Virus record (IMG/VR): IMGVR_UViG_3300005512_000277
Coordinates: 1-27,016 of that record
From: a virus
Lineage: Duplodnaviria > Caudoviricetes
Reading direction: 5' to 3' (one strand)
Length of the DNA: 27,016 bases
Below the pieces are notes generated by a model. It had not been told where the DNA came from. It worked only from the letters and a program-made list of their open reading frames with translations, and did not search any database. The position numbers and the translations under genes are program-made. Below, one piece after another: positions 906-15,728 of this stretch. Positions within the stretch are counted from its first letter, which is position 1, and each line of letters starts with the position of its first letter.

Positions 906-2236
906 GCAAGATTTCTGAGCTGTCAGACGGCGGCGCACTTCAAAGTACCGACTATCTCATTGCGGTGCGGTCGGGTGGGAATGTCAAAGTGCAGCCCGGC
1001 TCCATGAGCGTAGACATCAACGGCGGCACGATTGACGGCGTGACCATCGGCGGGTCGAGTGCTGGGGCGGGGAGTTTTACGACCCTAACCGCAAGTGGCG
1101 ACGTTAACTTTGATAGCGGGACGTTGTTTGTCGATGCGTCTGCGGATGCGGTGGGGATTGGGACGAGTTCGCCGGGGTACAAGGCGGACATTGCGGCAAG
1201 CAACGCACTCGTGATGCGCCTTAAAGGTGGCTCAGGCGCCGTAGATAATTGCGGCCTGACCTTTGCCGGTAACGCAACCGGAAACCTTTTTAGGATAGGC
1301 ACCAACGTATCCGACAACGGCACAGGCGCGAATTTTGATTTTTACGACCTTGTTGCAAATGTCAACCGTTTACGCATCGACTCCTCCGGCCTCCTGACCA
1401 ACCAGATTGGCGCGGTGTTCAACGAGTCTGGCGCAGATTCCGACTTCCGCGTCGAGTCTGACAACAACGCTAATATGCTGTTTGTGGATGCGGGGAATGA
1501 CCATGTTTGCATCGGCACATCTTCTGACCTTGGCGGCACTTTAAACGTCAACGGCGGTGCAGTATTTGATGACGCCGACACCCTTGACCCCGACACAATG
1601 GGCGTTGGCCGTATTGGTATCGGAACGATTGCTGATGGAGGCCCGTTTGGTGGCCCAGCTATTGGCTGGGGCGGTAGTAGTGGGAATACTGCCGCAATCG
1701 CTGCTGTAAGCGGTGTTTTGTATTTAGGCACTGGTAATAAAAGCTCTGCTAACAATTTAGGAACTCGTTTACAGCTTTCTAATACCGAATGTGTTTTTAA
1801 TGACGACGGCAACGACCAAGACTTCCGCGTCGAGTCTGACAGCAACGCCCATGCGCTGTTTGTGGATGCGGGGAATAATCGGGTTGGGATTGGAGAGTCA
1901 AGTCCAAGTCAAGCACTAGATGTTAACGGAAATGTACTTGCGGATCGCTTTATGACGGCGACAGGAACCACTGGGTCTCTTGCTACATCTGGAACCGCCG
2001 ACATTTTAAATCTAGCTGGTGCAAGTGGATTATGGCAAGTGTCTGTTAGGAATAGTGATGGCGGAATAAACTGGAGAAATTCTTCTCAAGTTTTTTTCAA
2101 TGGAGTTTCTTCTTCTAGCATACAAACAAGTGACTCCGCTAATGTAACGGTTACGATGTCTGGAACTAATCTTAGATTAACAAACACTAGCGGCACAACA
2201 ATAGCTCTTACTTGGTCCGTAACAAGATTACTTTAA
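902..2236 (+). CDS. Tail fibre / receptor-binding protein
   Basis: 444 aa, Gly/Ser/Thr/Asn-rich, with repeated VFNESG..DFRVESD.N...LFVDAG...VGIG units and VGIGTSSP motifs typical of fibre shafts. Confidence 0.8.
   Translation: MSKISELSDGGALQSTDYLIAVRSGGNVKVQPGSMSVDINGGTIDGVTIGGSSAGAGSFTTLTASGDVNFDSGTLFVDASADAVGIGTSSPGYKADIAASNALVMRLKGGSGAVDNCGLTFAGNATGNLFRIGTNVSDNGTGANFDFYDLVANVNRLRIDSSGLLTNQIGAVFNESGADSDFRVESDNNANMLFVDAGNDHVCIGTSSDLGGTLNVNGGAVFDDADTLDPDTMGVGRIGIGTIADGGPFGGPAIGWGGSSGNTAAIAAVSGVLYLGTGNKSSANNLGTRLQLSNTECVFNDDGNDQDFRVESDSNAHALFVDAGNNRVGIGESSPSQALDVNGNVLADRFMTATGTTGSLATSGTADILNLAGASGLWQVSVRNSDGGINWRNSSQVFFNGVSSSSIQTSDSANVTVTMSGTNLRLTNTSGTTIALTWSVTRLL
1442..1498 (+). repeat. Internal direct repeat in tail fibre gene, copy 1
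   Basis: 52/57 nt identical to 1820-1876, including two perfect 22-mers (gacttccgcgtcgagtctgaca and gctgtttgtggatgcggggaat). Confidence 0.95.
1820..1876 (+). repeat. Internal direct repeat in tail fibre gene, copy 2
   Basis: 52/57 nt identical to 1442-1498. Confidence 0.95.
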
Positions 2237-2261
2237 CCCCAGCCATAAAGGAGAAACAACC

Positions 2262-2657
2262 ATGGCTATTACTTGTACTTGGACCATCAACAACATGACC
2301 CACAAGGACGCTGACGGCGGGGTGATCCTCGTCTACTGGTCCTGCGTGGCCTCTGACGGCACCTACTCGGCAACCGAAGGCGGCAAGCTACGCTGCGAGC
2401 CTGATCCGTCGGCACCGGGATACATCCCCTACGCAGACCTCACTCAGGACGACGTTCTGGGCTGGGTCTACAACAGCCTTGTCGAAGGCGAGGAAACCCC
2501 CGAGGAGGCAAAGGCCCGGATCGAAGCTGACCGCACGGCTAAGGTGCAGAAGCAAATCGACCGCTCAATCGGATCAATTTTGGTCCGATCAGCGACGTGC
2601 CTTTCCAGATTCAGCGATGGACTAGAGCGGGTGGGAAGGTCTTGGAGGGGCTGGTAA
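2262..2657 (+). CDS. Tail-fibre-associated small protein; native sequence probably ends near 2564 and the rest is a chimeric read-through
   Basis: Good RBS (aaggaga). MAITCTWTI...YIPYADLTQDDVLGWV resembles small proteins encoded next to phage fibres. After ...VQKQIDR the frame reads through DNA that codes for an endolysin in another frame. Confidence 0.65.
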   Translation: MAITCTWTINNMTHKDADGGVILVYWSCVASDGTYSATEGGKLRCEPDPSAPGYIPYADLTQDDVLGWVYNSLVEGEETPEEAKARIEADRTAKVQKQIDRSIGSILVRSATCLSRFSDGLERVGRSWRGW

Positions 2658-2716
2658 AGAGAAGGGCGGCAGAAGCCGCGTTATGGCAGAACCTAAACTG
2701 GCGGGAGTTTGTATGA
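2564..2716 (+). pseudogene. 3' remnant of a GH24 (RrrD-type) phage lysozyme
   Basis: My translation: LNRINFGPISDVPFQIQRWTRAGGKVLEGLVKRRAAEAALWQNLNWREFV*. RW..AGG.VL.GLV.RR..EA.L is the conserved GH24 C-terminus. In-frame TAA at 2540-2542, no start codon and no catalytic N-terminus. Confidence 0.85.
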
Positions 2717-2919
2717 TCACTATTGACGGTACCGAGTACAAAGAAGACGACTTCACCGACGAGCAGAAATACATGCTCGCTCAAATCAAGGACCTTCAAA
2801 CGAAGGAAGAACAGCTAAAGTTCAACCTTCACCAGATCACCGTGGCGAGACAAGCGTTTATCGACGGGCTGTCAAAGTCCCTTAAAGCGCCCTCAGAGGC
2901 CGAAAATGAGCCTGATTAA
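2713..2919 (+). CDS. Small coiled-coil phage protein
   Basis: Start moved to ATG 2713 (RBS gggag, ATGA overlap with the lysozyme stop). MITIDGTEY...QIKDLQ...L..I..AR.AF pattern is common in tail/lysis regions. Confidence 0.7.
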   Translation: MITIDGTEYKEDDFTDEQKYMLAQIKDLQTKEEQLKFNLHQITVARQAFIDGLSKSLKAPSEAENEPD

Positions 2920-3619
2920 CGACATAGTTCGTTCCCCCAATGGCCTGTTAGCGGTCGCTGCGGGGCATTTCGAGGACGCACAAGCGGTAAACATCTTCGG
3001 CGTGAACCCTATTGTCGGGACGACCTATGAGACTTTGTGGGATTATGGAGGGCTTTATAGCTACCCTTCCAGTGCTGCTAGCCTTTCTGCTGTTTCTTCG
3101 TCTGCCTCAGACACTATGGCCGTCCTTATCAGTGGACTGGATGCGAACTATTGGCCGATTCAAGAGGTGGTTACGCTTACTGGTACGTCGGCTGTCACGA
3201 CGACTCAGGCGTTTCTGCGGGTAAATTCTGCGGTCATTCTTTCAGGGGAAAACGCTGGGAACATCACCATTACCTCTGGCGTTACGGTGGTGGGGTATAT
3301 CTCCATCGGGAAGGGTCTAACCCAAGCCTGTAACTTTACAGTCCCGGTAGATCATTCCCTATATTTGACGCGGATTGACCTAACGTCAGGCACCGTCAAC
3401 CCGAATAAGTACATTACCTATCGCAACGTCACTAAGACGCATACGGGGCGGTGCTTGCGGGTAGCAGAGGCAACGTGGCAGACTGACGAACAGTCGTTTG
3501 ACCGGCAGGTGCCCTTTAAGATCGCGGAGAAAACCGACTTCCAGTTTGAGGCCAAATCATCTTCGGGCGATAACATTGTCTCCATATTTGTGGAAGGCAT
3601 ACTGGTGAGGAATGACTGA
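2906..3619 (+). CDS. Hypothetical protein, possibly virion-associated beta-rich protein
   Basis: 237 aa ORF, S/T/G/V-rich, translationally coupled to both neighbours. Confidence 0.65.
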   Translation: MSLINDIVRSPNGLLAVAAGHFEDAQAVNIFGVNPIVGTTYETLWDYGGLYSYPSSAASLSAVSSSASDTMAVLISGLDANYWPIQEVVTLTGTSAVTTTQAFLRVNSAVILSGENAGNITITSGVTVVGYISIGKGLTQACNFTVPVDHSLYLTRIDLTSGTVNPNKYITYRNVTKTHTGRCLRVAEATWQTDEQSFDRQVPFKIAEKTDFQFEAKSSSGDNIVSIFVEGILVRND

Positions 3620-3714
3620 TGCCCCTAAAAAAGAGCCAGAGCAAGAAGAAGATGCCCCAAGGCGGGGTCATGAAGCGTAAGACCGAGAAGAAGAAAAAGC
3701 CCTACGGGAAGTAG
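3619..3714 (+). CDS. Very small Lys-rich protein (MPLKKSQSKKKMPQGGVMKRKTEKKKKPYGK)
   Basis: TGATG coupling, RBS ggtgagga. Below the ORF-track cutoff. Confidence 0.55.
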   Translation: MPLKKSQSKKKMPQGGVMKRKTEKKKKPYGK

Positions 3715-3719
3715 TAGAC

Positions 3720-3737
3720 GGGGGGCCGAAGCCCCCC
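3720..3737. terminator. GC hairpin at the end of the late transcript (ggggggc-cgaa-gcccccc)
   Basis: Perfect 7-bp stem with a UUCG loop on the - strand. No clear U-tract on either side. Confidence 0.45.
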
Positions 3738-3828
3738 TGCTACGCCAGCAACGGGCGGGAAACTAGCGCAGCGGTTATATCCTAGCACCTTCTAATAGCA
3801 AAATGTTCTAAGCATTCTCTGCTAAACC

Positions 3829-3847
3829 TAAACAGAACTGTTATGAT
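3829..3847 (+). promoter_or_regulatory. Putative extended -10 promoter (TGtTATGAT) overlapped by dyad TAAACAG-aa-CTGTTAT
   Basis: TG at 3839-3840 and TATGAT at 3842-3847, upstream of RBS gagaggag and the first recombination gene. Confidence 0.55.
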
Positions 3848-3875
3848 TGCAGTGGGTTTAGAGAGGAGATTACCC

Positions 3876-4460
3876 ATGTTACCTAAGCTGATCTGGGACA
3901 CCCTGTCCCAAATTGACGTATCGGCTCATACCGAGCGCAAGCAGAACCTTACCTATCTATCCTGGGCGTGGGCCTGGGGGACGATGTGCAAGCACTTCCC
4001 TGACACCACCTACACCTTTACGTCTGAGTCCTTCCCCGATGAAACCGTGGAGTACACCTGTACTGTCACGGTAAACCACAACGGTGCTACCCACTCCCAA
4101 ATGATGTGGCTCCCGGTTATGGATCACCGAAACAAGGCGATCAAGAATCCTGACGCGTTCGCTCGGAACACCTGCAAGATGCGCTGCCTTACGAAGTGCC
4201 TCTCCATGCTTGGCTTAGGCCACTACATTTATGCAGGCGAGGACCTTCCCGAAGGGCATGAACCGGAGAAGATCAACGAGCAGGAAGCCGAACTGCTTAA
4301 GCGCATGATTGAAGAAACCTCGACCGATCTTGAGAAGTTCTTCATGGCCTTCAAGATCAAGTCTCTACAGGAGATGCCAAAGGAGCGGTTCCCTAAAGCT
4401 CTGGCTGCGCTAGAGAAGAAGATGGAAGCTCAAGGGGGTAGCGCAAATGCAGGTGCATGA
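3876..4460 (+). CDS. Single-strand annealing protein, DUF1071 (Sak-type)
   Basis: LTYLSWAWAW and MWLPVMDHRNKAIKNP...MRCLTKCL...GLGHYIYAGEDLP motifs. Start moved to ATG 3876 behind RBS gagaggag. Confidence 0.85.
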   Translation: MLPKLIWDTLSQIDVSAHTERKQNLTYLSWAWAWGTMCKHFPDTTYTFTSESFPDETVEYTCTVTVNHNGATHSQMMWLPVMDHRNKAIKNPDAFARNTCKMRCLTKCLSMLGLGHYIYAGEDLPEGHEPEKINEQEAELLKRMIEETSTDLEKFFMAFKIKSLQEMPKERFPKALAALEKKMEAQGGSANAGA

Positions 4461-4710
4461 CCCCGTTGTTATAAAAACCTCGCTAGAAGAAGCGATTGGC
4501 TGGGCAACAATTGCTCTTGAGTCGGGTGATTTAGGCGCAATGATGCGAGCACATAGCAAGCTGAATGAAAAAATGCCACCTATGTCTGGACTTATTTACT
4601 TAGCGTTGAACAAAGGGACGGTAGACCAATTGTCCGAGGAAGACCAAGACCTCGCTGAACTCATTGAGTTTAGGGATACTTTGCGGGAGGCAATAGATGC
4701 GGGTAATTAA
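4447..4710 (+). CDS. Hypothetical protein
   Basis: 87 aa ORF overlapping both neighbours, somewhat more AT-rich. Confidence 0.6.
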   Translation: MQVHDPVVIKTSLEEAIGWATIALESGDLGAMMRAHSKLNEKMPPMSGLIYLALNKGTVDQLSEEDQDLAELIEFRDTLREAIDAGN

Positions 4711-5296
4711 CTGCGAGCAGGGAACCGAGGAATGGCTGGCGGCGCGTTTAGGTGTGCCCTCCGCCTCTAGCTTCTCGAAGCTCATTACCCCTACGGGGAA
4801 GCGATCCTCTACCTTTGATTCATACGTCAATCAATTGGTGGCGGAACGTATCACAGGTGAGGCAACGCCCTTCCCTACTACAGACGCTATGGCTAGAGGG
4901 ACCGAACTGGAACCCCACGCTAGAGCCTATTACGAGTTCGCTACCGATAACGAAGTGGTAGAGATGGGGTTCATCAAACACGCCGTCTTAGAAGCTGGAT
5001 GCAGCCCTGACGGCTTCGTAGGGGATATGGGAGGCATTGAGATCAAGTGCCCCCTACCTCATACGCATATTGAAACCCTACGAGGGGGAACTATGCCCTC
5101 GAAACACATTCCCCAAGTACAAGGGTGTATGTGGATCACTAGACGGGAATGGTGGGACTTCGTGTCCTACCACCCCGATATGCAGACTCTAATCGTACGG
5201 ATCGAAAGAGACGATGCGTACATAGAGACCCTCGCGGAGCTTGTAAAAGAAGCCTGCGAATCCATCGAATGTTTAACTAAGGATGTAGCACTATGA
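4697..5296 (+). CDS. YqaJ / lambda-exonuclease family 5'-3' exonuclease
   Basis: EQGTEEWLAARLG..SAS, RGTELEP.AR, GCSPDG, IEIKCP, QVQGCMW and WDFVSY motifs. Confidence 0.92.
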   Translation: MRVINCEQGTEEWLAARLGVPSASSFSKLITPTGKRSSTFDSYVNQLVAERITGEATPFPTTDAMARGTELEPHARAYYEFATDNEVVEMGFIKHAVLEAGCSPDGFVGDMGGIEIKCPLPHTHIETLRGGTMPSKHIPQVQGCMWITRREWWDFVSYHPDMQTLIVRIERDDAYIETLAELVKEACESIECLTKDVAL

Positions 5297-5541
5297 GCTA
5301 TGACAATAACCTTTCTGGCGCCCTCTTCAAGAATGATAAGAAAGAGACGGAGAAGCACCCGGACTACAAGGGGTCTTGTGAGATTGATGGGACCGAGTAT
5401 TGGGTAAGCTCGTGGCTTAACGAGTCGAAGAATGGGCGTAAGTACCTAAGCCTTAAGTTCAGCGCGAAGGACGAGCAAAAGCCCAGCAAGCCGGAACCAG
5501 CGGACGTAGGCGATGACCTAGACGAAGATGTGCCCTTCTGA
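5293..5541 (+). CDS. Small ssDNA-binding-like protein
   Basis: SGALFKN..K...HPDYKG...YWVSSW...YLSL core plus an SSB-type acidic tail DDLDEDVPF. Confidence 0.75.
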   Translation: MSYDNNLSGALFKNDKKETEKHPDYKGSCEIDGTEYWVSSWLNESKNGRKYLSLKFSAKDEQKPSKPEPADVGDDLDEDVPF

Positions 5542-5747
5542 TGAACGTGGGAGCTAGCTTACGAGCCCTCCAGAAAGACCGCGTGATAGCAAATGTGGAT
5601 ATTGCTCGGGCTCTCGGGGTACACGCTCTAACAATCAGCCGCTGGCGGAATTACACGGACCTACAGGCGTCCTATTGTCAGAAGCTGGCGGACTTTTTCG
5701 GGCTAACTGTTGACGAGTTTCTATCCTATGGACTTCTGGAAGATTGA
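5541..5747 (+). CDS. Cro/C1-type helix-turn-helix regulator
   Basis: 68 aa; DIARALGVHALTISRW...LADFFGLTVDEF pattern. Confidence 0.8.
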   Translation: MNVGASLRALQKDRVIANVDIARALGVHALTISRWRNYTDLQASYCQKLADFFGLTVDEFLSYGLLED

Positions 5748-6165
5748 TCGACCCCAGCAGGTTGAGGAGCGGCTAGAACACTTAGGGGAACACCTTAAAG
5801 CTAATTGGGACTGGTCTACGCCAGTCTCGATTAAGCCAGAGGTGTACCAGAACCCACGCTCTTTAACGCAAAACGCTTTATTCCACGTTTGGGTACGGCA
5901 GATGGTAAGTCACTTCAAACCGGCTAGACCGGAGCTAACCGACGAGGAAATGAAGGACATATGCAAATACAGGTTCCTAGGCACGGAATCTAGAAAAGCT
6001 GGTAAGATCATGCTCGAAAATCAGTTGAAGCAGACATCTAAGCTACGAAAAGGCGAGATGTATCACTTCATGGAGCAGGTCTACCAGTGGTGTTTGGAAT
6101 TGGGCCTGCAACTCGATACCCCATCTGACTCGGAGTTCATGGAGATACGTAAGAGTCAGGCGTAG
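5728..6165 (+). CDS. NinB/Orf-like recombination mediator
   Basis: RSLTQNALFHVW and TSKLRKGEM..FMEQV..W..E.G..L motifs. ATG 5728 preferred over TTG 5710. Confidence 0.75.
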   Translation: MDFWKIDRPQQVEERLEHLGEHLKANWDWSTPVSIKPEVYQNPRSLTQNALFHVWVRQMVSHFKPARPELTDEEMKDICKYRFLGTESRKAGKIMLENQLKQTSKLRKGEMYHFMEQVYQWCLELGLQLDTPSDSEFMEIRKSQA

Positions 6166-6174
6166 GGAGGGAGA

Positions 6175-7365
6175 ATGGGCGCACCAAAGCAAGTAGACCC
6201 AGAGTTATTGAACTACTGCGTTTCGGAACAGGAACGGCTGTACGTCAATGGTACGATTGAACACGGGTCTATGCGAGCTGCGGCTCAGGCTGCAGGGGTT
6301 AACTCTGGAACGGTTCGGCAAGCACTGGACCGAATAAAGCTCCGGGCGGCGAAGATGGGTTATGCGCCGGAGCATGACCTGAATAAACCGACTACTGCCC
6401 CGTTCGTGGTGAAGGGAACGTCTACTCTCTACGGGGAGGACGGTCAGCCGAAATTGCAGTGGGTAAAGACCAACCTCGATAGGGAAGCCCAGCTAGAGAT
6501 CATGCAGCAGGCTGTAGAGGCGATCTGCGAAGATGTTAAGCCTACCAAAGCCATCCCTCCTCCCCCTGACGTAAACGAGCAACTCATTTCCATCTACCCG
6601 TGGGGCGACCCTCACGTTGGGATGTACGCGTGGGCTGATGAGGTGGGAGATAACTTTGACCTGTCCATCGCGGAACAGGACATGTGCAACGCGGTTGACT
6701 ATCTGGTTGAACGATCCCCGCCCTCTAAGCGCGGCGTCCTTGTTAATTTGGGGGATTTTTTCCACTATACCAACATGACGGGCACGACAGAGCGCAGCGG
6801 CCATGTCCTCGACCGAGATTCACGAACGGCAAAGATGATCGACGTAGGGGTTAGGATCATCAAACGATGCTTAGAACGAATGCGGGAGAAGCATGAGATA
6901 GTCGAACTCATAAACGCTCCCGGTAACCATGATGAAACCTTCGCTCACTTCCTTAACGTCCTTTTCCGCAACCTCTACGCCAACGAAAACCGCGTTATCG
7001 TTCACGACGCACCTACGACCCGTCATTACTTACAGCACGGGAAGTGCCTGATCGGTGTAGTCCATGGTCATCAGACCAAGGACCGAGACCTACCGGGGAT
7101 CATGGCTACGGAAAAGCCCAAAGAATGGGGGGCGACTAAACATAGGGTATTCCTTCGCGGACACCACCATCATGACTCAAGGGTTGAATACAACGGATGC
7201 GTGGTCGAAATGGTAAGGACCCTCGCTGCCGGGGACTCCCACAGCGTGGGCGGTGGGTACTTATCAGGTAGGGATATGAAATGTATCGTCATGCACTCCG
7301 AATTTGGAGAGCAGATGCGGTTAACCTGTGGAATCGACGTATTGAGGAGAGAATATGCAGCTTAA
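6175..7365 (+). CDS. Calcineurin-like metallophosphoesterase with N-terminal HTH
   Basis: GDPHVG, LGDFFH, PGNHD, HGH and GHHH metal-binding motifs; N-terminal SMRAAAQAAGVNSGTVRQAL HTH. Confidence 0.8.
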   Translation: MGAPKQVDPELLNYCVSEQERLYVNGTIEHGSMRAAAQAAGVNSGTVRQALDRIKLRAAKMGYAPEHDLNKPTTAPFVVKGTSTLYGEDGQPKLQWVKTNLDREAQLEIMQQAVEAICEDVKPTKAIPPPPDVNEQLISIYPWGDPHVGMYAWADEVGDNFDLSIAEQDMCNAVDYLVERSPPSKRGVLVNLGDFFHYTNMTGTTERSGHVLDRDSRTAKMIDVGVRIIKRCLERMREKHEIVELINAPGNHDETFAHFLNVLFRNLYANENRVIVHDAPTTRHYLQHGKCLIGVVHGHQTKDRDLPGIMATEKPKEWGATKHRVFLRGHHHHDSRVEYNGCVVEMVRTLAAGDSHSVGGGYLSGRDMKCIVMHSEFGEQMRLTCGIDVLRREYAA

Positions 7366-7567
7366 CAATTACGGGCCCATGGCTGAGACGCTAAAAAGGA
7401 TTACGGCTTACCAACAAGTCGGCTGTCATCACGAACCCGGCTATGGGCAGGATTATTACCGAATCACAGTCAAGGAGGGTTCTAAAACGATCTCTGACGT
7501 ATTTAACATCCAGAACGATGGTCAGCTAAATGATGCCATCAACAAACTGTATCTGAGGGCGCTATGA
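7355..7567 (+). CDS. Hypothetical protein
   Basis: RBS gaggaga; coupled to neighbours. Confidence 0.6.
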   Translation: MQLNNYGPMAETLKRITAYQQVGCHHEPGYGQDYYRITVKEGSKTISDVFNIQNDGQLNDAINKLYLRAL

Positions 7568-7752
7568 ATAGGATTGAATGGCAGGAGGACGACCCGGATC
7601 AGGATGGCGAGGTGGCTATGTCCCTAACGATCATTTCAGGGGACTCAGCGTTACTCGCTAGAGCGCGGAAGATGTTCCGCCAGCTATTGGATGACCGCCA
7701 GCCCCTAACACCCATCTCTTCTTTCCCGAGGAATGACGATGGCCGCGATTAA
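7564..7752 (+). CDS. Hypothetical protein
   Basis: ATGA overlap, RBS gaggg. Confidence 0.55.
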   Translation: MNRIEWQEDDPDQDGEVAMSLTIISGDSALLARARKMFRQLLDDRQPLTPISSFPRNDDGRD

Positions 7753-8143
7753 GCGCGACGCGGCGGACAACTTTTTTTCCCTATGTGTTAGAGCTAAGGC
7801 GAATTTCTCTTGTGAATACTGCGGGAAGGAGTTTCCCGGCCCTGATCAGGGGCTGCATTGCGCCCATATCGTGGGGAGACGCAACTCAAGCACGCGCTGG
7901 GCCTTAGACAACGCTGTGTCCCTCTGCTACTACCATCACCGCTATTTCACGGAAAACCCCTTAGATTTCTCCTATTGGCTCTTTGAGTATTTGGGCGAAG
8001 GCCATATGGAGCGCCTCATGGAGAAGCGTAACGAGGTCTATAGGGTGCGCGTGGCGGATAAGAAGGAGATCGCCAAGCACTATCGGGAGCAGTGGAAAGC
8101 CTATCAGGACGGCCTTGAGCCGGAATTTGTCTCTTGGAATTAA
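7739..8143 (+). CDS. NinG/Rap-like HNH-fold nuclease
   Basis: D..FS..VR, CEYCG, LHCAHIVGRR..STRW..DNA..LC..HH motifs. Start ATG 7739 behind gagga. Confidence 0.75.
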   Translation: MAAIKRDAADNFFSLCVRAKANFSCEYCGKEFPGPDQGLHCAHIVGRRNSSTRWALDNAVSLCYYHHRYFTENPLDFSYWLFEYLGEGHMERLMEKRNEVYRVRVADKKEIAKHYREQWKAYQDGLEPEFVSWN

Positions 8144-8168
8144 AAAAGGGGCCCCGAAGGGCCCCAAA
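8142..8168 (-). terminator. Rho-independent terminator on the - strand
   Basis: Minus strand reads GGGGCCC-TTCG-GGGCCCC-TTTTTT. Confidence 0.85.
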
Positions 8169-8200
8169 GCTGGCAGGAGAGAGGAGGGAGAGCCACCAGC
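8142..8200 (-). ncRNA. Putative ~60 nt small RNA with an anti-Shine-Dalgarno loop
   Basis: Lies between a - strand promoter (TTGACG 8235-8230, 17 bp, TATAAC 8212-8207) and the terminator. Folds as GCUGG-[UGGCUCUCCCUCCUCUCUCCUG]-CCAGC followed by the terminator hairpin. Confidence 0.55.
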
Positions 8201-8206
8201 CAGTAC

Positions 8207-8269
8207 GTTATACCCCTTGGAATAAAGCCCGTCAAATCGCTTTACAGGGCGTCCTAGAGGGGTTAAATT
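8207..8269. promoter_or_regulatory. Back-to-back sigma70-type promoters
   Basis: Plus strand: TTTACA 8241-8246, 17 bp, TAAATT 8264-8269. Minus strand: TTGACG, 17 bp, TATAAC. Confidence 0.6.
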
Positions 8270-8273
8270 GAAT

Positions 8274-8700
8274 GCGTCGGTGGGGCTAGCAACCCCTGAA
8301 GAACCGACGGGAAAAGGATTGGAATCGTTCACCCGACGCGGTGAACACTATAACGCCACTACCAGTAGCGTTCAATCCCTAAAACCCGTCTATATCTTGT
8401 GCCGACTGGGACTGCTCCCCACAAGATGTGCTGTCGCATCGCGCAGCCAGCAGCAAAGCGAGATGTTAGTTCAGGACCTTTGAGGACGGGAATAAACAGC
8501 GTACAGGTGCCGCGAAAGCGTGGGGGCGGTGTTACGAGCCGCAGGTAAATCGTTGCTGATGACGCTGAACTAACGGGAAATTGCAGGTAGACCTAGCATG
8601 GGGGCACCAATAGTCCTCAAAAGACACTTATTGCCTAAGAAAAGAGGGTAGCCGGGGCCTTATAGCAAAACGGTATTTTAAGACCGCCCGTCCTGGCTCT
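8274..8700 (+). ncRNA. Putative large structured RNA or structured leader/origin upstream of the helicase
   Basis: No credible ORF; more than ten complementary segment pairs, some crossing (see findings). Begins at the predicted start of the + promoter. Confidence 0.55.
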
Positions 8701-8728
8701 AAGATTAAGGTTCGACAGAGGAGGCGTT

Positions 8729-10201
8729 ATGCAGTTACGACCACACCAGGAACAAGCAGTTGAGATGCTCCGAGACAGTTTGCGGAGAGGCAAGACCCGC
8801 CCCATCCTTGCGGCCCCCTGTTCCTTCGGTAAGACCATTACTGCGGCCTACTTACTTTCTGAGGCAGCGAAGAAGGGCAAGCGCGGTATCTTTATCTGTG
8901 ACCGCGTAAAACTGGTTCAGCAGGCTCTAGACGCCTTCGACCGTGAGGGGTTAGAGGTAGGGGTCATGCAGGGACAGCATGAGAGACAGGACTATCGCGC
9001 TCCCATCCAGATCGCGTCGATTCAGACCATCGCTCGACGTAAGCATCTGCCTGAATTTGACTTCGCCATCGTTGACGAATGCCACGTTCACTACAAGACG
9101 ACGCAATACATGATGGAGCGATATACGGCGGTCCCTTTCATCGGGCTGACGGCGACCCCGTATAGCAAGGGGCTGGGCCTGGCTTATAACGACCTGGTCT
9201 GCCCCATAACCCCTACGGAATTGCTCGAAGGGAAATACCTTACCCCTGTCACCTACTACGGCGGCGCCTCAGTTGATGTATCTAATATCAAAGGACGGGC
9301 GCTAAAGACTGGCGGGTCCGACTATGACCCTCTTGCTCTAGGGAGGGCTACGGAGGATGACCAGACCCTGGTTGGAGACATCATTTCAAACTGGCTGAAG
9401 CACGCTAGCGGACGGCAGACGATTGCCTTTTCTCCCTCGATCAAGCACTCAAGAGACATGGTGGATCAGTTCAATGCGGCTGGAATCCCCGCAGTCCATA
9501 TTGACGGCTACATGGACGACGAGGAGCGGCAAGTTATCTACCGCGCCCACGACGAGGGGGAGTTCCTGGTCCTCTCCTGCTCTCGATTGCTGAATGTTGG
9601 TTATGACGCGCCCAAAGTCTCATGCCTGATTGATTGCTTCCCCACGAAATCCATCATCGCCTACGTTCAGAGAGCGGGCAGGATCATGCGGACGGCGGAG
9701 GGCAAAGAGGACGCTATCTACCTGGACCACGCGGGGAACGTCGGACGGCACGGCTTCGCGGAGGACATCGAGCCGGAGGCTTTAGATACCTCGGAAAAGG
9801 GGTTCTCTGAGCGGAACCAGGTGAAGGAGAAGAAGGAGAAGAAGGCGCACGACTGCCCCCAGTGTTATCGGAAGTTTACGGGTATGCGATGCGTCTGCGG
9901 CTACACCCATCCCATCAAGGATCGGTTAGAGACTGATGGCAGCGAGCTTAAACGCCTCGAGCGTAAGAACCGGGGGCAGCTATCTTGTGGGGACTGGTAC
10001 GGACAACTAACCCTCTATGCCGACTACCAAGGCTACAAGAGGGGCTGGGCGGCTCATGTCTATAGGCAGAAGTTTGGGAAATGGCCTAACGGTGTTGCTC
10101 CTGAACGGGTGTCTGAGGTCTCCCCCGAAGTAATGGGGTTTATCAAGCATCAACAAATTAGGAGGGCAAATGCTCGCGGACGAATTGAAGTGGATGCTTA
10201 A
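8729..10201 (+). CDS. Superfamily II (DExH, ResIII-like) DNA helicase with C-terminal Zn finger
   Basis: LRPHQ, PCSFGKT, VDECH, GLTATP and YVQRAGR motifs; CPQC...CVCG. Confidence 0.92.
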   Translation: MQLRPHQEQAVEMLRDSLRRGKTRPILAAPCSFGKTITAAYLLSEAAKKGKRGIFICDRVKLVQQALDAFDREGLEVGVMQGQHERQDYRAPIQIASIQTIARRKHLPEFDFAIVDECHVHYKTTQYMMERYTAVPFIGLTATPYSKGLGLAYNDLVCPITPTELLEGKYLTPVTYYGGASVDVSNIKGRALKTGGSDYDPLALGRATEDDQTLVGDIISNWLKHASGRQTIAFSPSIKHSRDMVDQFNAAGIPAVHIDGYMDDEERQVIYRAHDEGEFLVLSCSRLLNVGYDAPKVSCLIDCFPTKSIIAYVQRAGRIMRTAEGKEDAIYLDHAGNVGRHGFAEDIEPEALDTSEKGFSERNQVKEKKEKKAHDCPQCYRKFTGMRCVCGYTHPIKDRLETDGSELKRLERKNRGQLSCGDWYGQLTLYADYQGYKRGWAAHVYRQKFGKWPNGVAPERVSEVSPEVMGFIKHQQIRRANARGRIEVDA

Positions 10202-10367
10202 GAAGGGCTGGACTGCCCAGTATCGGCATGAAACCTACCGGGAGCGGATTACCCGCTCGGTCTACGAATCGAAACTCAGAAGCAAAGTCACGCATGGAGA
10301 GGAAACGAATGATCTCTGGGGAGGGAGTCGAAATGCACAGCTTGGAGCGTGGAACGAAGAAGCGTAG
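10170..10367 (+). CDS. Hypothetical protein
   Basis: RBS ggaggg at 10161; overlaps the helicase end. Confidence 0.45.
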   Translation: MLADELKWMLKKGWTAQYRHETYRERITRSVYESKLRSKVTHGEETNDLWGGSRNAQLGAWNEEA

Positions 10368-10545
10368 GGCGCTAGAAATGTGGGAGGAGGAAATGCTTAC
10401 CGAAAGACAGGCAGCAGCCCTCTTGCGAGTTTTTGCCCAAATCAACGAATGGGAACATTTGAGGGGGGTAGAAAAGACCGCGTTTAGGCAAGGTGTGAAG
10501 AAGATCGCTAAAGCATGGGGAAACAGAAAAGATGCGCGTCCTTGA
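10309..10545 (+). CDS. Hypothetical protein (start uncertain)
   Basis: In-frame ATGs at 10309, 10333 and 10393 each have SD-like sequences; stop overlaps the methylase start. Confidence 0.5.
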   Translation: MISGEGVEMHSLERGTKKRRALEMWEEEMLTERQAAALLRVFAQINEWEHLRGVEKTAFRQGVKKIAKAWGNRKDARP

Positions 10546-11336
10546 CCTATTCAGCGGCATAGGCGGGTTCTCACTAGGTTTAGAGCGAGCCGGTATGGAG
10601 ACGGTAGCGTTCTGCGAGGTAGACGCATTCTGCCGTCAAGTCTTAGCCAAGCACTGGCCTAACGTAAGGATTCACGATGATGTCAGAACACTTGATGGAA
10701 ATGAGTACCGAGGAGCAGTTGACGTTGTTTGCGGAGGATTCCCCTGCCAGCCGTTCAGTGTTGCCGGGAAGCGAGCAGGCAAGGACGATGACCGTCACCT
10801 CTGGCCTGAGATGCTTAGAATCATTCGAGAGGTTCAGCCGCGTTACGTCATTGGCGAGAACGTTGCTGGGTTCGTCAACATGGAACTCGACAATTGCCTA
10901 TCTGACTTGGAAGCAATCGGTTACGCCTGCGGGGCGTTTGTTATTCCGGCTTGTGCCGTCGATGCCCAACACAGAAGGGATCGAGTCTGGATTCTTGCCA
11001 ACAGCAACAGCAACAGCGAACCAAGCCGCTCCGTCAATGATGAAGCACGCGGGTTGCAGACGACTAATGGGGGGGGGCAAAGTTCATGCCAACGCCAACA
11101 GCGCACTTGAGCAAGGAGGGAGGTTATCCAGCGGAGTACACGCGCAAGACGCCGACACTAACAGCGGAAGCCACGAAGGCGGACGGACTGCCCCCTGCCA
11201 GTGGAAGCCTGAACCCTCAGTGGGTCGAGTGGTTAATGGGGTTCCCCGAAGGATGGACCGACTTAAAGCCCTTGGAAACGCCGTAGTGCCGCAAGTGGTG
11301 GAGCAGATCGGACTAGCAATAATGGGGGAACAATGA
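10532..11336 (+). CDS. C5 cytosine DNA methyltransferase, alpha subunit (frameshifted at G9 tract 11069-11077)
   Basis: LDLFSGIGG, GGFPCQPFS, ENV and H.R.RVWI (motifs I-VIII) lie in ORF 10532-11110; motif X (RLKALGNAVVPQV) lies in the +1 frame ending at 11336. Deleting one G joins them into 267 aa. Confidence 0.85.
10677..11286 (+). CDS. Overlapping-frame beta subunit of the methyltransferase (same frameshift; start could be 10695 or 10701)
   Basis: QLTLFAEDSPAS...LPT.TA N-part, then MPTPTA...LNPQWVEWLMGFPEGWT (motif IX-like) in the +1 frame. Same arrangement as M.EcoHK31I alpha/beta. Confidence 0.7.
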
Positions 11337-11755
11337 TTGACGAGCTACTAGACAGGCTGGACAAGGTGAGAGCTAACGGCAAGAGCAAGTGGGTAGCCTG
11401 CTGCCCGGTACACGGGGATAAGAACCCCTCGATGAGCGTGGCGGAAAAAGACGGGCGCGTCCTATGCCATTGCTTCGCGTGCGGGGCTAACGGGCTAGAG
11501 GTAGCGAAGGCGCTCGGCCTGCCCCCATCGGTCCTGTTTGAGAAGCCTATAGAGCATGGCTATATACCGAAAAAAGTCTACGAAAAACTGGATATAGACA
11601 GGCTCGTTCTCGCCGGTTATGAGGAAATGAAGAAAGCAGGTAAGCCCTTGTCCTATAAGGACTTTAAGCGGGTAAAGCTGGCTAGGGCTAGGGTGGAGGA
11701 ATTAGAAAGCCGATTCTTAGAACAAAACAATATAAACAGAGCTGTTTACAGCTAG
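11333..11755 (+). CDS. Stand-alone CHC2 primase-type zinc-finger protein
   Basis: CCPVHGDKNPSMSV...CHCFACGA. Only 140 aa, with no Toprim domain. Confidence 0.8.
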   Translation: MIDELLDRLDKVRANGKSKWVACCPVHGDKNPSMSVAEKDGRVLCHCFACGANGLEVAKALGLPPSVLFEKPIEHGYIPKKVYEKLDIDRLVLAGYEEMKKAGKPLSYKDFKRVKLARARVEELESRFLEQNNINRAVYS

Positions 11756-11772
11756 CCAGAAATGATTAGAAT
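11733..11772 (+). promoter_or_regulatory. Putative sigma70 promoter overlapped by dyad TAAACAG-ag-CTGTTTA
   Basis: TTTACA 11745-11750, 16 bp, TAGAAT 11767-11772, upstream of RBS gagagagga. Confidence 0.55.
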
Positions 11773-11817
11773 GTATTCATGCCCTAACGCAAGGGCCTAA
11801 CGAGAGAGGATAAGAAA

Positions 11818-12027
11818 ATGGCAATAGCAACCAAAGCACAGCGAGCCATCATCAAGGCGGAGGCAGAGAGCCGGGATTGCCGCTATCGGATCACTCAGGA
11901 CGGCGAAGTGCATTTCCACGGCCAAATGCCCAACAGTATCGAATCCGGCTGGTGGATTTTTGAGCCAAGCGTTCAGGAGGCATTAGATAGCATTGCGGGT
12001 TATCCGCTAGAGGAGGACGCGGCATGA
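11818..12027 (+). CDS. Hypothetical protein
   Basis: Strong RBS; first gene of the small-ORF cluster. Confidence 0.65.
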   Translation: MAIATKAQRAIIKAEAESRDCRYRITQDGEVHFHGQMPNSIESGWWIFEPSVQEALDSIAGYPLEEDAA

Positions 12028-12191
12028 GCAGCTATATTTACGCTTACGGCTACCGCACTCACGAGGCGGCGGAGCTTGCCATCATTGATGAACTATCCGA
12101 GTCCTGCGTGAGCCGGTGCGAGAACCCGCGAGTTGTCGCGTACCGCACCAAAGGTGGCCGCAAGCTCTATTGCATCTTGCTTGACGCTTAA
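12024..12191 (+). CDS. Hypothetical protein (55 aa, MSSYIYAYGY...)
   Basis: Not in ORF track; RBS gaggagg, ATGA overlap. Confidence 0.6.
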   Translation: MSSYIYAYGYRTHEAAELAIIDELSESCVSRCENPRVVAYRTKGGRKLYCILLDA

Positions 12192-12200
12192 GGAGGCAGC

Positions 12201-12353
12201 ATGAGCCGTAAAGAGTACCTGAACCTTCTGCGCGCCCAGCCGACGCAGTTTTTGAAAAAGAGCGTAGCACGCCCGTCATTGTGGATGAGCAAAACCCACG
12301 TCCTTTTGCATTACATTGCTCTCAAGGAGCGCGGAGAGGCGCAAGAACAATGA
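12201..12353 (+). CDS. Hypothetical protein (50 aa, MSRKEYLNLL...)
   Basis: Not in ORF track; perfect RBS taaggagg. Confidence 0.65.
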   Translation: MSRKEYLNLLRAQPTQFLKKSVARPSLWMSKTHVLLHYIALKERGEAQEQ

Positions 12354-12529
12354 AAACACTGCTAGCAGCCACCATCGTCTTATTTATCCTGGGATGCGTA
12401 GGGGAGATGGACTACCAGGATGCGGTAGACGAAGCCGACCACTATACCGATATGGTCTGCAACGGCTACTGGCCCGACTATCAGCTGTTGAACCCGGACT
12501 GCGCGTTTAATGTGGAGGCGAAACAATGA
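12350..12529 (+). CDS. Small membrane-anchored or secreted protein
   Basis: MKTLLAATIVLFILGC signal-like N-terminus; start moved to ATG 12350 (ATGA overlap). Confidence 0.65.
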   Translation: MKTLLAATIVLFILGCVGEMDYQDAVDEADHYTDMVCNGYWPDYQLLNPDCAFNVEAKQ

Positions 12530-12651
12530 GATTCGGGTGCGTAATGATTAACTTCAATTACACCAACTGGCACGACTCCTTTGAGGAGGCCTTGGCCTTC
12601 GGTCTGAAATCCGGATTTCAGTTCACGATCATTGAGGAGGCGGTTAAATGA
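12526..12651 (+). CDS. Hypothetical protein (41 aa)
   Basis: Not in ORF track; RBS ggagg, ATGA overlaps at both ends. Confidence 0.55.
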   Translation: MRFGCVMINFNYTNWHDSFEEALAFGLKSGFQFTIIEEAVK

Positions 12652-12962
12652 GCAGGCACACGCCGGGAGAGTGGCGGGTTTATAACGGATGGGTACACCC
12701 GGGCTTTGACGGCCCGGGCCCTGAAACTACTAACGGTGACACGGCTATCTGCGAGCCACTCGGGCCAGACAAAGAGGCTAACGCTCACCTGATTGCAGCG
12801 GCGCCTGAGCTGTTGGAGGCGCTTAGATGGTACGCGGAGCAAGTTGAGGATTTGAACCGTAACACCTGGGCAGCCGAAAAAGCATTAGGGGTTTTGCGGG
12901 CAGATCGCGGCAAAAAGGCGCTGGCAGTCATCGCAAAAGCAAAGGGAGAGGAGCATGAATGA
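12648..12962 (+). CDS. Phage protein of the HTPG.W...ANA.LIAAAPELLEAL...IAKAKG family
   Basis: Recognisable motif set common among small early phage genes. Confidence 0.75.
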   Translation: MSRHTPGEWRVYNGWVHPGFDGPGPETTNGDTAICEPLGPDKEANAHLIAAAPELLEALRWYAEQVEDLNRNTWAAEKALGVLRADRGKKALAVIAKAKGEEHE

Positions 12963-13134
12963 ACAACCAAAACTGCGAGTCTCCGATGTTGGTGTGATCT
13001 CTGTGGATTCCAATGATCTGGCTCGCAGCAAAGCAGGCAGAAAACAAATCGAGGCGCTTGAACGCTTAACGAAAAACCGTCGAATTCCGCCGACATTTGC
13101 TTCAGCCGCGATTGCAATAGCAAAGGGAGAGTGA
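12955..13134 (+). CDS. Hypothetical protein (59 aa, MNEQPKLRV...AIAIAKGE)
   Basis: Not in ORF track; RBS ggagaggag. Confidence 0.55.
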   Translation: MNEQPKLRVSDVGVISVDSNDLARSKAGRKQIEALERLTKNRRIPPTFASAAIAIAKGE

Positions 13135-13137
13135 GTA

Positions 13138-13449
13138 ATGCGCGACTACGACGAGAACTACGAATGGTGGCAGGAGACTCGGGAAATGGTGACAGAGCAG
13201 GCTAAGTATCACGTTGAGGACTGGGTATGGAAGAACATAAACGACGCCGACTCAATGCAATATTTCTTTGAGACTATGGGCTTGGACCCCTTCGGGCTTG
13301 CTACGATCATGCTAGAGCATAAAAGCCATGCGGATCGGGTTAAGGCTATCCTCGATGAGTATGAGAAGGACGTAGAGGAGTTCCTAATCTGCTCCGATGC
13401 GTTCCACAAGAAGATGGAAGCCATGCGGATGGGCGACTATGACATTTAA
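13138..13449 (+). CDS. Hypothetical acidic protein
   Basis: 103 aa, RBS gggagag. Confidence 0.65.
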   Translation: MRDYDENYEWWQETREMVTEQAKYHVEDWVWKNINDADSMQYFFETMGLDPFGLATIMLEHKSHADRVKAILDEYEKDVEEFLICSDAFHKKMEAMRMGDYDI

Positions 13450-13639
13450 GATCGACGAGATCATTTGGGATGCCGAGGAGGGCAACCTTGGCGTAATGTA
13501 TGAAGGGGACCCCACCGACGAGCAGGCAGCGGTGGTCTCCGCCATGATGCAGGCCTTCTCCCGCCTAATCGTTAAGCAGCAGGAGGAGGCGGAAAAGATT
13601 ATGGCTAAATGGGAGGCGGCAGGGGAGATCAAGCATTGA
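13439..13639 (+). CDS. Hypothetical protein
   Basis: Start moved to ATG 13439 (MTFKIDEIIW...), giving a short overlap with the upstream gene. Confidence 0.55.
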   Translation: MTFKIDEIIWDAEEGNLGVMYEGDPTDEQAAVVSAMMQAFSRLIVKQQEEAEKIMAKWEAAGEIKH

Positions 13640-13794
13640 TACTCGCTAAGGACTTCAACTACCTATTAGGCAAGCAGGACGGCTACGCTCAGGCCCCCTT
13701 TAACGTCCATATAGGGGGCTCGTACGAGAAGGGATACAAGGAAGGGCAAAAACTGTATACTGATCAGCAGCGTAGGGGGCAGGGCCCCCGTTAG
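13636..13794 (+). CDS. Hypothetical protein
   Basis: TTG start overlapping the upstream TGA, RBS ggggag; Y..GY..G motifs. Confidence 0.45.
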   Translation: MILAKDFNYLLGKQDGYAQAPFNVHIGGSYEKGYKEGQKLYTDQQRRGQGPR

Positions 13795-13808
13795 AGCCGG
13801 GGGCTTAG

Positions 13809-14309
13809 ATGCTGAAGATCGAATATCGCAAGGCGGTAGACCTTACGCCGTATGAGAACAACAGTCGGACTCATAGTAAGGAACAGGTCGGTCAGATCGT
13901 AGAATCCATCAAGGAGTTTGGATTCACGAATCCAATCCTGATTGACGAAGATGGCGGGATTATCGCAGGCCACGGCAGGCTAGAAGCCGCTACCGCGCTC
14001 GGGATGGAAGAAGTCCCTACCATTACGCTAGAAGGGCTCTCAGAGGCCCAGAAGCGCGCCTACGTTATAGCTGATAACAAACTGGCTTTGAACGCTGGCT
14101 GGGATTTTGAGATGCTAAAACTTGAGTTTGAAGAGTTAAGCAATCTGAAGTTTGATTTTGAGCTTACAGGATTTGCGCAGTTTGAGCTTGCTAACATATT
14201 TGACGATGGTGTAAGGGAGGTGCAACAAAGCAAAACAAAAGAAATTGATGTTGACAGCTTTGATGCGGATCATCAGTGTCCAAAGTGTGGATTTGAATTT
14301 AATGATTAA
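13809..14309 (+). CDS. ParB/Srx-like N-terminal domain protein with C-terminal CxxC ribbon
   Basis: LTPYENNSRTH, SIKEFGFTNPILID, IIAGHGRLEAA and YVIADNKLA motifs; CPKCGFEF. Confidence 0.88.
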   Translation: MLKIEYRKAVDLTPYENNSRTHSKEQVGQIVESIKEFGFTNPILIDEDGGIIAGHGRLEAATALGMEEVPTITLEGLSEAQKRAYVIADNKLALNAGWDFEMLKLEFEELSNLKFDFELTGFAQFELANIFDDGVREVQQSKTKEIDVDSFDADHQCPKCGFEFND

Positions 14310-15384
14310 AAAACCTGATTGTGCCTGGAATCTATCAGACCTTAAATTAGTGCCTCAAAACGGATTTAAGGTAATGTCTACGTTTTCATGTGGTGGTGGG
14401 TCTACTATGGGTTATAAATTAGCAGGGTGTACTGTAATTGCTGCTAACGACATTGACCCTGAAATGGCATGGCATTACAAAGCAAACCATAATCCCAAGC
14501 ATTATTTTCTTTGTCCTATCGGTGAACTTATAACTGCTGACTTGCCGCAGGAATTATTTGAGCTTGATATTTTAGACGGATCACCACCTTGTAGCACGTT
14601 TAGTATGGCTGGAAGTCGCGAAAAAGCATGGGGTAAAGATAAACACTTTAGAGAAGGGCAGGCAAAGCAAGTATTGTCTGATTTGTTTTTTGACTATTTA
14701 GACTTAGTAGAAAGGTTAAAACCAAAAGTTGCTATTGCTGAAAATGTTAAAGGTATGCTTATTGGAAACGCAAAAGGCTATACTAAAATGATAATGCAGC
14801 GATTTAAAGAAATTGGTTACCGTGCTCAGGTGTTTCTTGTTAATGCTGCTGATTGCGGCGTTCCTCAGCGTAGGGAGCGTGTATTTTTTTGTGCGGTTAG
14901 AGATGATCTTAATTTGCCAGCACTTAAACTAAGTCCGCAGCATAGGTGGATAAGTGTCGCAGAGGCTACTGCTGACCTGCAGGTTTTAACAAAAGAAGAA
15001 ATTGAAGAAACAAAGCCCACCCTAAATGATTTGAAATGGTGGCCAAAAACTAAGCCCGGCTCTGATTATGGCGTTGCAGCATTAAGGGAAACAGGTAAGC
15101 CGACAGGATTTTCTACAAAAAAACTAAATGGAGATATTCCATCTAATACATTAACAGCGACTGATATGTTCAAGCATTGGCAAGAATGCCGAAAATTAAC
15201 TTTTAGAGAATGGAAACGCCTTGGCTCTTTTCCTGACGACTATCAGGCAAAAACAGATAGAATTGGAAAATATATGATAGGAATGAGTGTGCCGCCAAAG
15301 ATGACTGAGCAGGTAGCAAAAGCCGTTATACAGCAGTGGCTAGAACCTATATCAAAAAATATTGATATAGATAAGGTTGCCTAA
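14302..15384 (+). CDS. C5 cytosine DNA methyltransferase (single chain)
   Basis: STFSCGGGS, DGSPPCSTFS, ENVKG, GVPQRRERVFF, RLGSFPDDY and IGMSVPP motifs. Start moved to ATG 14302. Confidence 0.9.
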   Translation: MIKKPDCAWNLSDLKLVPQNGFKVMSTFSCGGGSTMGYKLAGCTVIAANDIDPEMAWHYKANHNPKHYFLCPIGELITADLPQELFELDILDGSPPCSTFSMAGSREKAWGKDKHFREGQAKQVLSDLFFDYLDLVERLKPKVAIAENVKGMLIGNAKGYTKMIMQRFKEIGYRAQVFLVNAADCGVPQRRERVFFCAVRDDLNLPALKLSPQHRWISVAEATADLQVLTKEEIEETKPTLNDLKWWPKTKPGSDYGVAALRETGKPTGFSTKKLNGDIPSNTLTATDMFKHWQECRKLTFREWKRLGSFPDDYQAKTDRIGKYMIGMSVPPKMTEQVAKAVIQQWLEPISKNIDIDKVA

Positions 15385-15728
15385 TGCCAGCAGGCCGACC
15401 AAGAAAAGAAATAGACTGGAGCATAGTTGATAGCTTGTGTGGTATTCACTGCACGGGAGATGAGATAGCGAGCGTCTTAAATGTTCACTACGACACGCTA
15501 AACAACCGATGCAAAGAGGAGCATGGAGTTAATTTTTCGGACTACTATAAAAAGGCTTCATCTAGTGGAAAAATATCACTTAGGCGACAGCAATACTCGG
15601 TAGCTATGAAGGGTAACGTCTCAATGCTTATCTGGCTAGGCAAGAACATATTAGGGCAGAAGGACGCGCCGGAGAACGGCTCCGATCGGCAGGACATAAA
15701 TATAAATATCGTGACTCCCGATGCCTGA
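15384..15728 (+). CDS. terS: Terminase small subunit
   Basis: GRP.KEID, CT..EIA HTH, SLRR.Q and MLIWLGKN.LGQ.D motifs; directly upstream of TerL. Confidence 0.8.
   Translation: MPAGRPRKEIDWSIVDSLCGIHCTGDEIASVLNVHYDTLNNRCKEEHGVNFSDYYKKASSSGKISLRRQQYSVAMKGNVSMLIWLGKNILGQKDAPENGSDRQDININIVTPDA

Follow-up and report, generated by a model that had tools for sequence, protein, structure and literature searches.

A candidate small-RNA family in tailed phages, apparently uncatalogued, with comparative evidence for predicted targeting of the phages' own early leaders

The locus and its genome setting

The window, meaning the whole stretch of 27,016 nucleotides analysed here, comprises the complete record IMGVR_UViG_3300005512_000277 and is a 27-kb fragment of a tailed phage. 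The early block runs in the order sak, YqaJ exonuclease, ssb, HTH, ninB, phosphoesterase and ninG; after ninG come a helicase, a methylase, a primase zinc finger and a cluster of small ORFs, and then the packaging, head and tail genes. The cytosine methyltransferase (10532-11336) is split across two frames that both match phrog_363, with the same split length in contigs L001 and L002. No close cultured relatives were found, intergenic blastn giving matches of only 26-36 nt (capsid 50%, helicase 38%). The genomes G002 and G003 (L271-L274) have the early module and its RNAs in common with the window and almost no structural genes that match; the early module thus travels with different virion types.

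The 50 annotated ORFs of the window gave no integrase and no antirepressor, and in four relatives, each 76-88% complete, no tyrosine or large serine integrase was found. A search of 185,579 species genomes found no prophage copy beyond one 995-bp fragment. The initial sequence-only reading, which saw no obvious CI or integrase in this phage, is supported as to the integrase and was too strong as to CI, since positions 5541-5747 of the early operon hold a small HTH_3 (Cro/CI-like) gene, just above the Pfam cut-off, which leaves room for a protein repressor.

Of particular interest is a short unit on the minus strand between ninG and the helicase gene, here called unit A (Table 1). A minus-strand promoter (TTGACG-17-TATAAC) and a terminator with U6 had been described there, and both are present, the former on reading the sequence and the latter also in the terminator scan, as the first of 26 terminator-like sites in positions 1-16000. 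The -35 and -10 boxes lie 17 nt apart and the hairpin begins 6 nt beyond the -10; the promoter does not appear in the promoter-scan output because its -10 lacks the last T. The hairpin that was originally drawn, with 5 bp and a 22-nt loop, holds as a hairpin but not in its dimensions, the fold giving 8 bp, two of the pairs in the display stem being G-U, and 16 nt. Folding of 8142-8200 yields -27.5 kcal/mol (z -3.3), and none of 200 shuffles is as stable.

Two further descriptions of the locus need qualification. The unit was said to contain no ORF, and mechanical ORFs do overlap it (7961-8332 minus, 7983-8225 plus and 8134-8271 plus), but the loop varies in length by 1-2 nt among relatives, which argues against the unit coding for protein. 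The genome was said to be otherwise all-plus, which is true of the called proteins but not of RNA, given a second minus-strand RNA unit, unit B, at 3720-3772.

Table 1. Coordinates in the window of unit A, its neighbours, its predicted target sites and the companion RNAs
Feature	Position	Strand	Remarks
Unit A, predicted 59-nt small RNA	8142..8200	-	start placed from promoter spacing
-35 box TTGACG	8230..8235	-	sequence read; TTG-type box in relatives
-10 box TATAAC	8207..8212	-	TATATT, TATGTT or TATAAG in relatives
Display hairpin	8169..8200	-	8-bp stem (8200-8193 with 8176-8169), 16-nt CU loop (8192-8177)
Intrinsic terminator	8142..8165	-	7-bp GC stem 8165-8148, UUCG loop, U6 at 8147-8142
NinG/HNH-like gene	7733..8143	+	stop codon alone overlaps the U tract, by 2 nt
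Back-to-back promoter TTTACA-17-TAAATT	8241..8269	+	promoter scan
Companion structured non-coding element, about 355 nt	8273..8625	+	own promoter, back-to-back with unit A
Unit B, second small-RNA unit	3720..3787 (RNA unit 3720-3772)	-	extended -10 TGnTAGGAT at 3787-3779, hairpin with loop core CCGCCCGU, GC hairpin
Sak RBS, word AGAGAGGAG	3860..3868	+	gene 3876-4460; behind extended -10 TGTTATGAT at 3839-3847; best-supported predicted target
Phosphoesterase RBS GGAGGGAGA	6166..6174	+	9-nt match in the window genome; not conserved as a target
Helicase RBS AGAGGAGG	8717..8724	+	8-nt match; tracks the loop partly
First gene of small-ORF cluster, RBS GAGAGAGGA	11802..11810	+	gene 11818; promoter 11745-11772; second predicted target
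Further 8-nt matches in small-ORF cluster leaders	12009-16, 12943-53, 13124-31 (AGGGAGAG)	+	sequence match

Conservation of the unit and its companion RNAs

Related contigs were collected by searches with the helicase, ninG, phosphoesterase and sak genes and by three pattern scans, and the 5' motif of the neighbouring non-coding element served as the anchor for reading their flanks. A CU-loop unit lies on the opposite strand in all 26 distinct flanks long enough to read, 20 of them identified by pattern and six (L001, L002, L019, L130, L010 and L012) read directly. It comes in two architectures, one with two hairpins (in some cases with an extra 5' hairpin) and one with a three-way junction, the latter in a lineage with an inverted recombination operon. 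The two-hairpin form has had its display stem replaced by unrelated sequences with the pairing kept: in a 10-row alignment 88% of 145 cells are paired, with 12 two-sided changes, and none of 500 shuffles reaches its paired fraction or its covariation score. In three rows of that alignment the register is off by one column, and a set of related sequences may outscore shuffles of this type; the paired fraction and the covariation count as supporting evidence only. The terminator stem is paired in 70 of 70 cells, with one G-C/C-G swap.

The geometry of the putative promoter is conserved. A TTG box and a TAT box stand 17 nt apart in 13 of 13 two-hairpin units examined, in a scan that required these prefixes and allowed spacers of 16-18, and the spacer sequences differ. 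From the -10 to the loop stem there are 6 nt in seven of the 13 units and 22-23 nt in the six with the extra 5' hairpin. For the three-way-junction form no clear sigma-70 promoter was seen by eye, and its U tract is weak. In 10 of the 13 units the better fold is that of the pyrimidine strand. In the other three the plus strand, which carries the leaders' own purine word and folds too, is slightly better, as might be expected if the purine strand were the functional one, a decoy whose copy of the early-leader word would titrate some protein or RNA that binds the leaders. The U tract, the promoter and the G-U pairs indicate that the pyrimidine strand is functional, and the promoter scan lists no plus-strand promoter upstream of the unit; a decoy therefore seems to us barely credible.

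A covariance model run over 100 sources (1.1 Mb) scores the held-out member L144 at 70 bits and unit B of L115 at 47 bits, and elsewhere finds nothing above 27 bits. Rfam has no match for unit A, the window at E up to 5 giving two weak and unrelated matches, none of them at the locus, and 15 related loci at gathering score giving a tRNA only. More distant phages keep the companion RNA and do not have unit A beside it, and the element in L016/L115 is ambiguous, having no terminator and possibly belonging to the companion RNA. We consider unit A very probably a real RNA gene.

The sak-to-ninG operon, together with the 355-nt element, is inverted relative to the helicase gene in L006-L013. Unit A is kept after the inversion, with ninG no longer its neighbour, and in this third lineage it is co-oriented with the helicase gene, about 150-200 nt upstream. 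This orientation, promoters that are back-to-back or overlapping, and a terminator scan that lists no plus-strand terminator after ninG would all suit a by-product or a cis-acting element, whether a terminator for backward transcription, an OOP-like cis-antisense RNA against read-through from ninG to helicase, or part of the helicase leader in the inverted lineage. Such roles are nevertheless very unlikely, since the overlap with ninG amounts to 2 nt, the unit persists where ninG no longer adjoins it, the lineage-3 helicase leaders already have a local anti-SD stem, and the conserved display hairpin, with a loop matching leaders 3.6-4.3 kb away (see below), would be left unexplained. The local stem, in L004, L007, L009, L011 and L012, sequesters the helicase RBS within the 60 nt before the helicase start and has matched changes on both sides between contigs; the window's version of it is weak.

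Every contig with the close-clade motif has the companion element next to unit A; the element inverts along with the early operon and is retained in distant phages. Two-sided changes occur at 14 of its 73 predicted pairs, eight of them in one long-range helix, and it has no Rfam match. Its identification as a tmRNA is unsupported, ARAGORN on 10 loci giving no tmRNA and one tRNA-like call inside the helicase region. Unit B, whose GC hairpin has no U run in the window, is also found in L014, L016, L019, L022, L079, L116, L128 and L141, and in another form in L003, L004, L007 and L009-L012. TTGCTA-16-TATAAC was dropped as its promoter, the spacing in relatives favouring the extended -10. Its loop core CCGCCCGU, which seems to resemble part of the decoding region of 16S rRNA, is nearly invariant and is carried by at least five different stems; no phage target emerged consistently, the best recurring match being 8 nt in the tail-assembly-chaperone leader (24382). 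This invariance suggests a host partner for unit B.

Other candidate units occur farther afield. In L035, L036, L038, L039, L041, L044 and L060 a different hairpin unit lies on the opposite strand between the lysozyme gene and an ERF-like recombinase gene; its loop is of the CCUUCCCCU type and it ends in a U tail. Its best leader match (8-9 nt) is to the small gene after ssb in four of five contigs scored, and in this ERF-recombinase clade the CU-loop unit has no match to the recombinase leader. At 12827-12895 of L227, and also in L028, L029 and L263, a promoter-like site is followed by a hairpin, a single-stranded CUCCUCCUCU and a terminator; this is a further anti-SD RNA candidate, in a clade more distantly related.

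Correspondence between the loop and the early leaders

The CU-rich loop of unit A had been proposed to pair with five ribosome-binding sites of the phage, in front of sak, the phosphoesterase, the helicase, the first gene of the small-ORF cluster and gene 13138, and all five matches are present where they had been placed. It had also been suggested that loop and RBS might change together in relatives, and for the first two sites discussed here they do. For each contig the loop was compared with the 28 nt that precede homologous start codons. In 19 of 19 contigs (18 of 18 without the row of the ambiguous L115 element) the sak leader, 4 kb from the unit, matches the contig's own loop perfectly over 8-10 nt, and of 17 genes compared sak alone averages at least 8 nt of own-loop match in every group. 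The window's sak leader folds with the site in a 14-nt loop, and its accessibility-corrected pairing with unit A is predicted at -15.6 kcal/mol.

Loop and leader carry a different word in each lineage: AGAGAGGAG in lineage 1, GAGAGAGAG, a (GA)n word, in lineage 2 and UGAGGAGAC in lineage 3. Exchanged between lineages, lineage-2 loops match lineage-3 sak leaders by 4-5 nt and lineage-3 loops match lineage-2 leaders by 4-6 nt, except for the loop of L139, which reaches 7-8 nt. The separation is less complete for lineage-1 loops, which reach 7-8 nt on lineage-2 leaders, and the L139 loop matches a lineage-1 leader by 10 nt and its own by 8. In lineage 3 the positions after the GUCUCCUC loop core vary and the sak leader is almost fixed. 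The (GA)n word pairs poorly with the ribosomal anti-SD (-3.2 kcal/mol for sak), so the lineage-2 match is more than a Shine-Dalgarno match, and the loop appears tuned to the phage leaders and not copied from 16S rRNA.

The second site is the first leader after the primase gene, which matches the contig's own loop by 8-10 nt in 13 of 14 contigs, the single miss being the L016/L115 row (13 of 13 without it). The search here spanned up to 330 nt, and each match directly precedes a start codon. The genes downstream of the matched leader are often unrelated between contigs. In lineage 2 the cluster leaders carry the lineage-2 word, and the lineage-3 post-primase leader has, in addition, CAAGGGG, which complements the loop in its 3' part.

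The remaining targets fare less well. The helicase leader follows the loop in part, with mean own-loop matches of 7.7, 5.8 and 6.2 nt in lineages 1, 2 and 3. The phosphoesterase leader averages 7.7 nt in lineage 1 but 6.0 nt in lineage 2 and 5.8 nt in lineage 3, where foreign loops do as well, and its match in the window is likely incidental. In L102 the phosphoesterase is 97% identical to that of the window, yet the loop and the sak leader are those of lineage 2. The comparison with own loops rules out the phosphoesterase, exonuclease, ninB, ssb, primase and terminase leaders as conserved targets, and two top-ranking sites, L128 5958 and L248 5629, were not counted, being spurious ORFs over the RNA locus itself. 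Of the target set first named, then, the Sak and small-ORF-cluster leaders stand as predicted targets, the helicase stands partly and the phosphoesterase falls away.

Gene trees count in support of pairing with the early leaders: loop type fits those of sak, exo and ninB with two changes, the fewest possible, and requires five on the phosphoesterase tree and three on that of ninG, which directly adjoins the unit. Against this, the helicase tree likewise needs only two with all groups together. How far these matches represent independent events is limited by descent. The three lineages amount to two independent transitions for the co-change of loop and leader, and contigs within a lineage are near-copies, so that the pooled counts suggest more independence than there is. 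Common ancestry by itself would also let loop type follow the sak tree. What can be said is that seed complementarity to the targets has been kept through joint change of loop and leaders, over two independent transitions only.

A separate line of evidence is the contrast between early and other leaders. In the window, matches of at least 8 nt occur in 9 of 24 early leaders and in none of 23 others (Fisher p 0.001); beyond the five sites already named, four more matches lie in called early leaders (7345, 10320, 12009 and 12943-53). Shuffled loops give a mean of 1.0 early matches, and one of 2000 shuffles reached nine; it had been cautioned that purine-rich SD matches are partly expected by chance, and the window's early matches exceed that expectation. 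Across five long records the counts are 23 of 103 early and 1 of 137 other leaders, with shuffled-loop p values of 0.0005, 0.021, 0.0045, 0.059 and 0.015, although two of the five are not significant on their own in the Fisher comparison of early with late (p 0.16 and 0.21). These figures depend on gene starts from a simple caller and on early boundaries set by the analyst, and SDs are somewhat stronger in the early leaders in four of the five records. Among 978 leaders of more distant phage contigs the background match rate is 0.4-3.2%.

The window's loop contains CCUCCU, the anti-SD core (PMC6107199), and 2.4% of background leaders match that loop at 8 nt, so that dozens of host genes would match by chance. 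The RNA might on these grounds be a generic anti-SD directed at host mRNAs, or a sponge for a pyrimidine-binding host protein, with the phage matches secondary. A fixed host target, though, should fix the loop, which instead changes with the phage leaders; and the lineage-2 loop, which has no such core, matches 0.4% of background leaders and 5 of 20 of its own early leaders. We regard a host target as quite unlikely, and pairing of the unit A RNA with the early leaders of its own phage as likely.

Relation to known RNAs and presumed role

The OOP RNA of lambda lies upstream of the replication genes, and unit A resembles it in being a short opposite-strand unit with its own promoter and terminator that adjoins replication genes. 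OOP (77 nt) and sar of P22 (68/69 nt) are short phage RNAs that regulate their own phage's genes, OOP as a cis-antisense RNA to cII and sar by pairing with a single mRNA, ant (PMC12197685). Unit A has no long perfect coding overlap comparable to that of OOP, its overlap with the ninG stop being 2 nt, and it differs from both in matching distant leaders by 8-10 nt.

The c4 RNA of P1 and P7 acts in trans on an mRNA of its own phage, its loops pairing near an RBS, and sequence differences underlie its specificity between related phages (PMC12197685; PMC8198154). The loop of unit A is likewise predicted, in silico only, to match near RBSs of its own phage, and it differs between related phages. 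However, c4 belongs to the c4-icd-ant operon and controls an antirepressor, whereas unit A has its own promoter and terminator, several predicted targets that head separate early transcripts, and as neighbours ninG, the non-coding element and the helicase gene, with no ant operon; neither the window nor the related loci match the C4-type structure of Rfam.

The comparison with c4 suggests another role for the same pairing, in which the RNA would keep early genes silenced, either on a genome already resident as a carrier or plasmid-like form or on a superinfecting phage from the same lineage. This overlaps in mechanism with damping of the phage's own early genes and differs in biological role. 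The lineage-private words of loop and leader do resemble an immunity code, c4 underlies P1/P7 heteroimmunity by acting through loops on the ant RBS region (PMC12197685), and no integrase was found in the window or the four relatives; but the species genomes yielded the one 995-bp fragment and no prophage copy, the 7-8 nt matches between lineages 1 and 2 would blur specificity, and an HTH protein is encoded. Immunity is the main alternative outcome and an unlikely one, damping of early genes with a delay being the most likely. A wider, tentative picture, for which we would claim little confidence, is an RNA repressor-operator system in which each lineage has a private 8-10 nt RBS word and one sRNA that reads it, combining shut-off of the early regulon with lineage-specific superinfection immunity without a CI protein, and with unit B and the 355-nt RNA in the same control module.

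RNA-only repression of a phage's own replication functions is known from the CI RNA of P4 (PMC4825925), though that RNA arises by processing of the very leader under its control and acts by terminating transcription, whereas unit A is predicted to block translation in trans. A functional analogue is the RegB endoribonuclease of T4, which inactivates early phage mRNAs at the purine motif GGAG (PMC1702504); the shut-off of early mRNAs proposed here would be brought about by an RNA with a lineage-specific motif instead of cleavage by a protein nuclease with a fixed one.

Among bacterial RNAs, the cuckoo or RSs0680 (CcsR) sRNAs of Alphaproteobacteria have an anti-SD-like CU loop on a stem of variable sequence (PMC4615179), and unit A too exposes an anti-SD-like sequence in the loop of a variable stem. 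The cuckoo RNAs, however, consist of two to four adjacent hairpins, each with a fixed CCUCCUCCC, whereas unit A has one loop, lacks the exact motif, varies in that loop by lineage and finds no Rfam match; the word 'phage' does not occur in the main text of that paper. RNAIII, RsaE and LhrC carry a C-rich UCCC loop that blocks SD sequences (PMC4132741). UCCC is unpaired in the window's loop and in the other two-hairpin loops, except where it closes the stem. Those RNAs are host RNAs of low-GC Gram-positives with host targets, and Rfam gives no homology of unit A to any of the three. At the level of abstracts, no description of the unit A RNA was found in the literature searched, and six motifs are absent from six supplementary files of the viral structured-RNA catalogue PMC10690425, whose files 1, 2 and 4 lie outside that scope and may hold the family.

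These observations support the view that the conserved minus-strand unit probably makes a trans-acting 59-nt sRNA that represses the phage's own early transcripts, above all those with the sak and post-primase leaders. The host sigma-70 polymerase would transcribe unit A from infection onward, alongside the early promoters (sak at about 3839-3847, the cluster at 11745-11772), and the terminator-capped RNA, presumably stable, would accumulate. Its open CU loop would capture the lineage-specific purine word in the leader RBS, and the pairing would cover the SD, exclude the 30S subunit and block initiation, as is established for C-rich-loop sRNAs (PMC4132741). The outcome would be a delayed negative feedback that shuts down the early recombination and host-takeover genes as infection proceeds. 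The proposal that one sRNA silences the early modules is thus partly supported, by anatomy and co-variation, as to a stand-alone RNA aimed at early leaders of the phage; the silencing we infer, and on present comparisons translational repression is the net effect that we favor, with reasonable though not high confidence.

Unit A thus appears to represent a real and apparently uncatalogued family of phage sRNAs, with comparative evidence for self-targeting of early leaders, and two further uncatalogued RNA families lie at the same locus. Known phage regulatory RNAs mostly act on one phage mRNA or on host mRNAs, whereas here the comparative data point to one tiny RNA that addresses several early leaders of its own phage, by a code that has changed together in the RNA and its targets. 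The lineages supply natural cognate and non-cognate pairs, with which early shut-off and RNA-based exclusion could be examined by reporter swaps even though the phage is uncultured, and the same pairs of loop and leader may serve as compact, possibly orthogonal translational repressor pairs.
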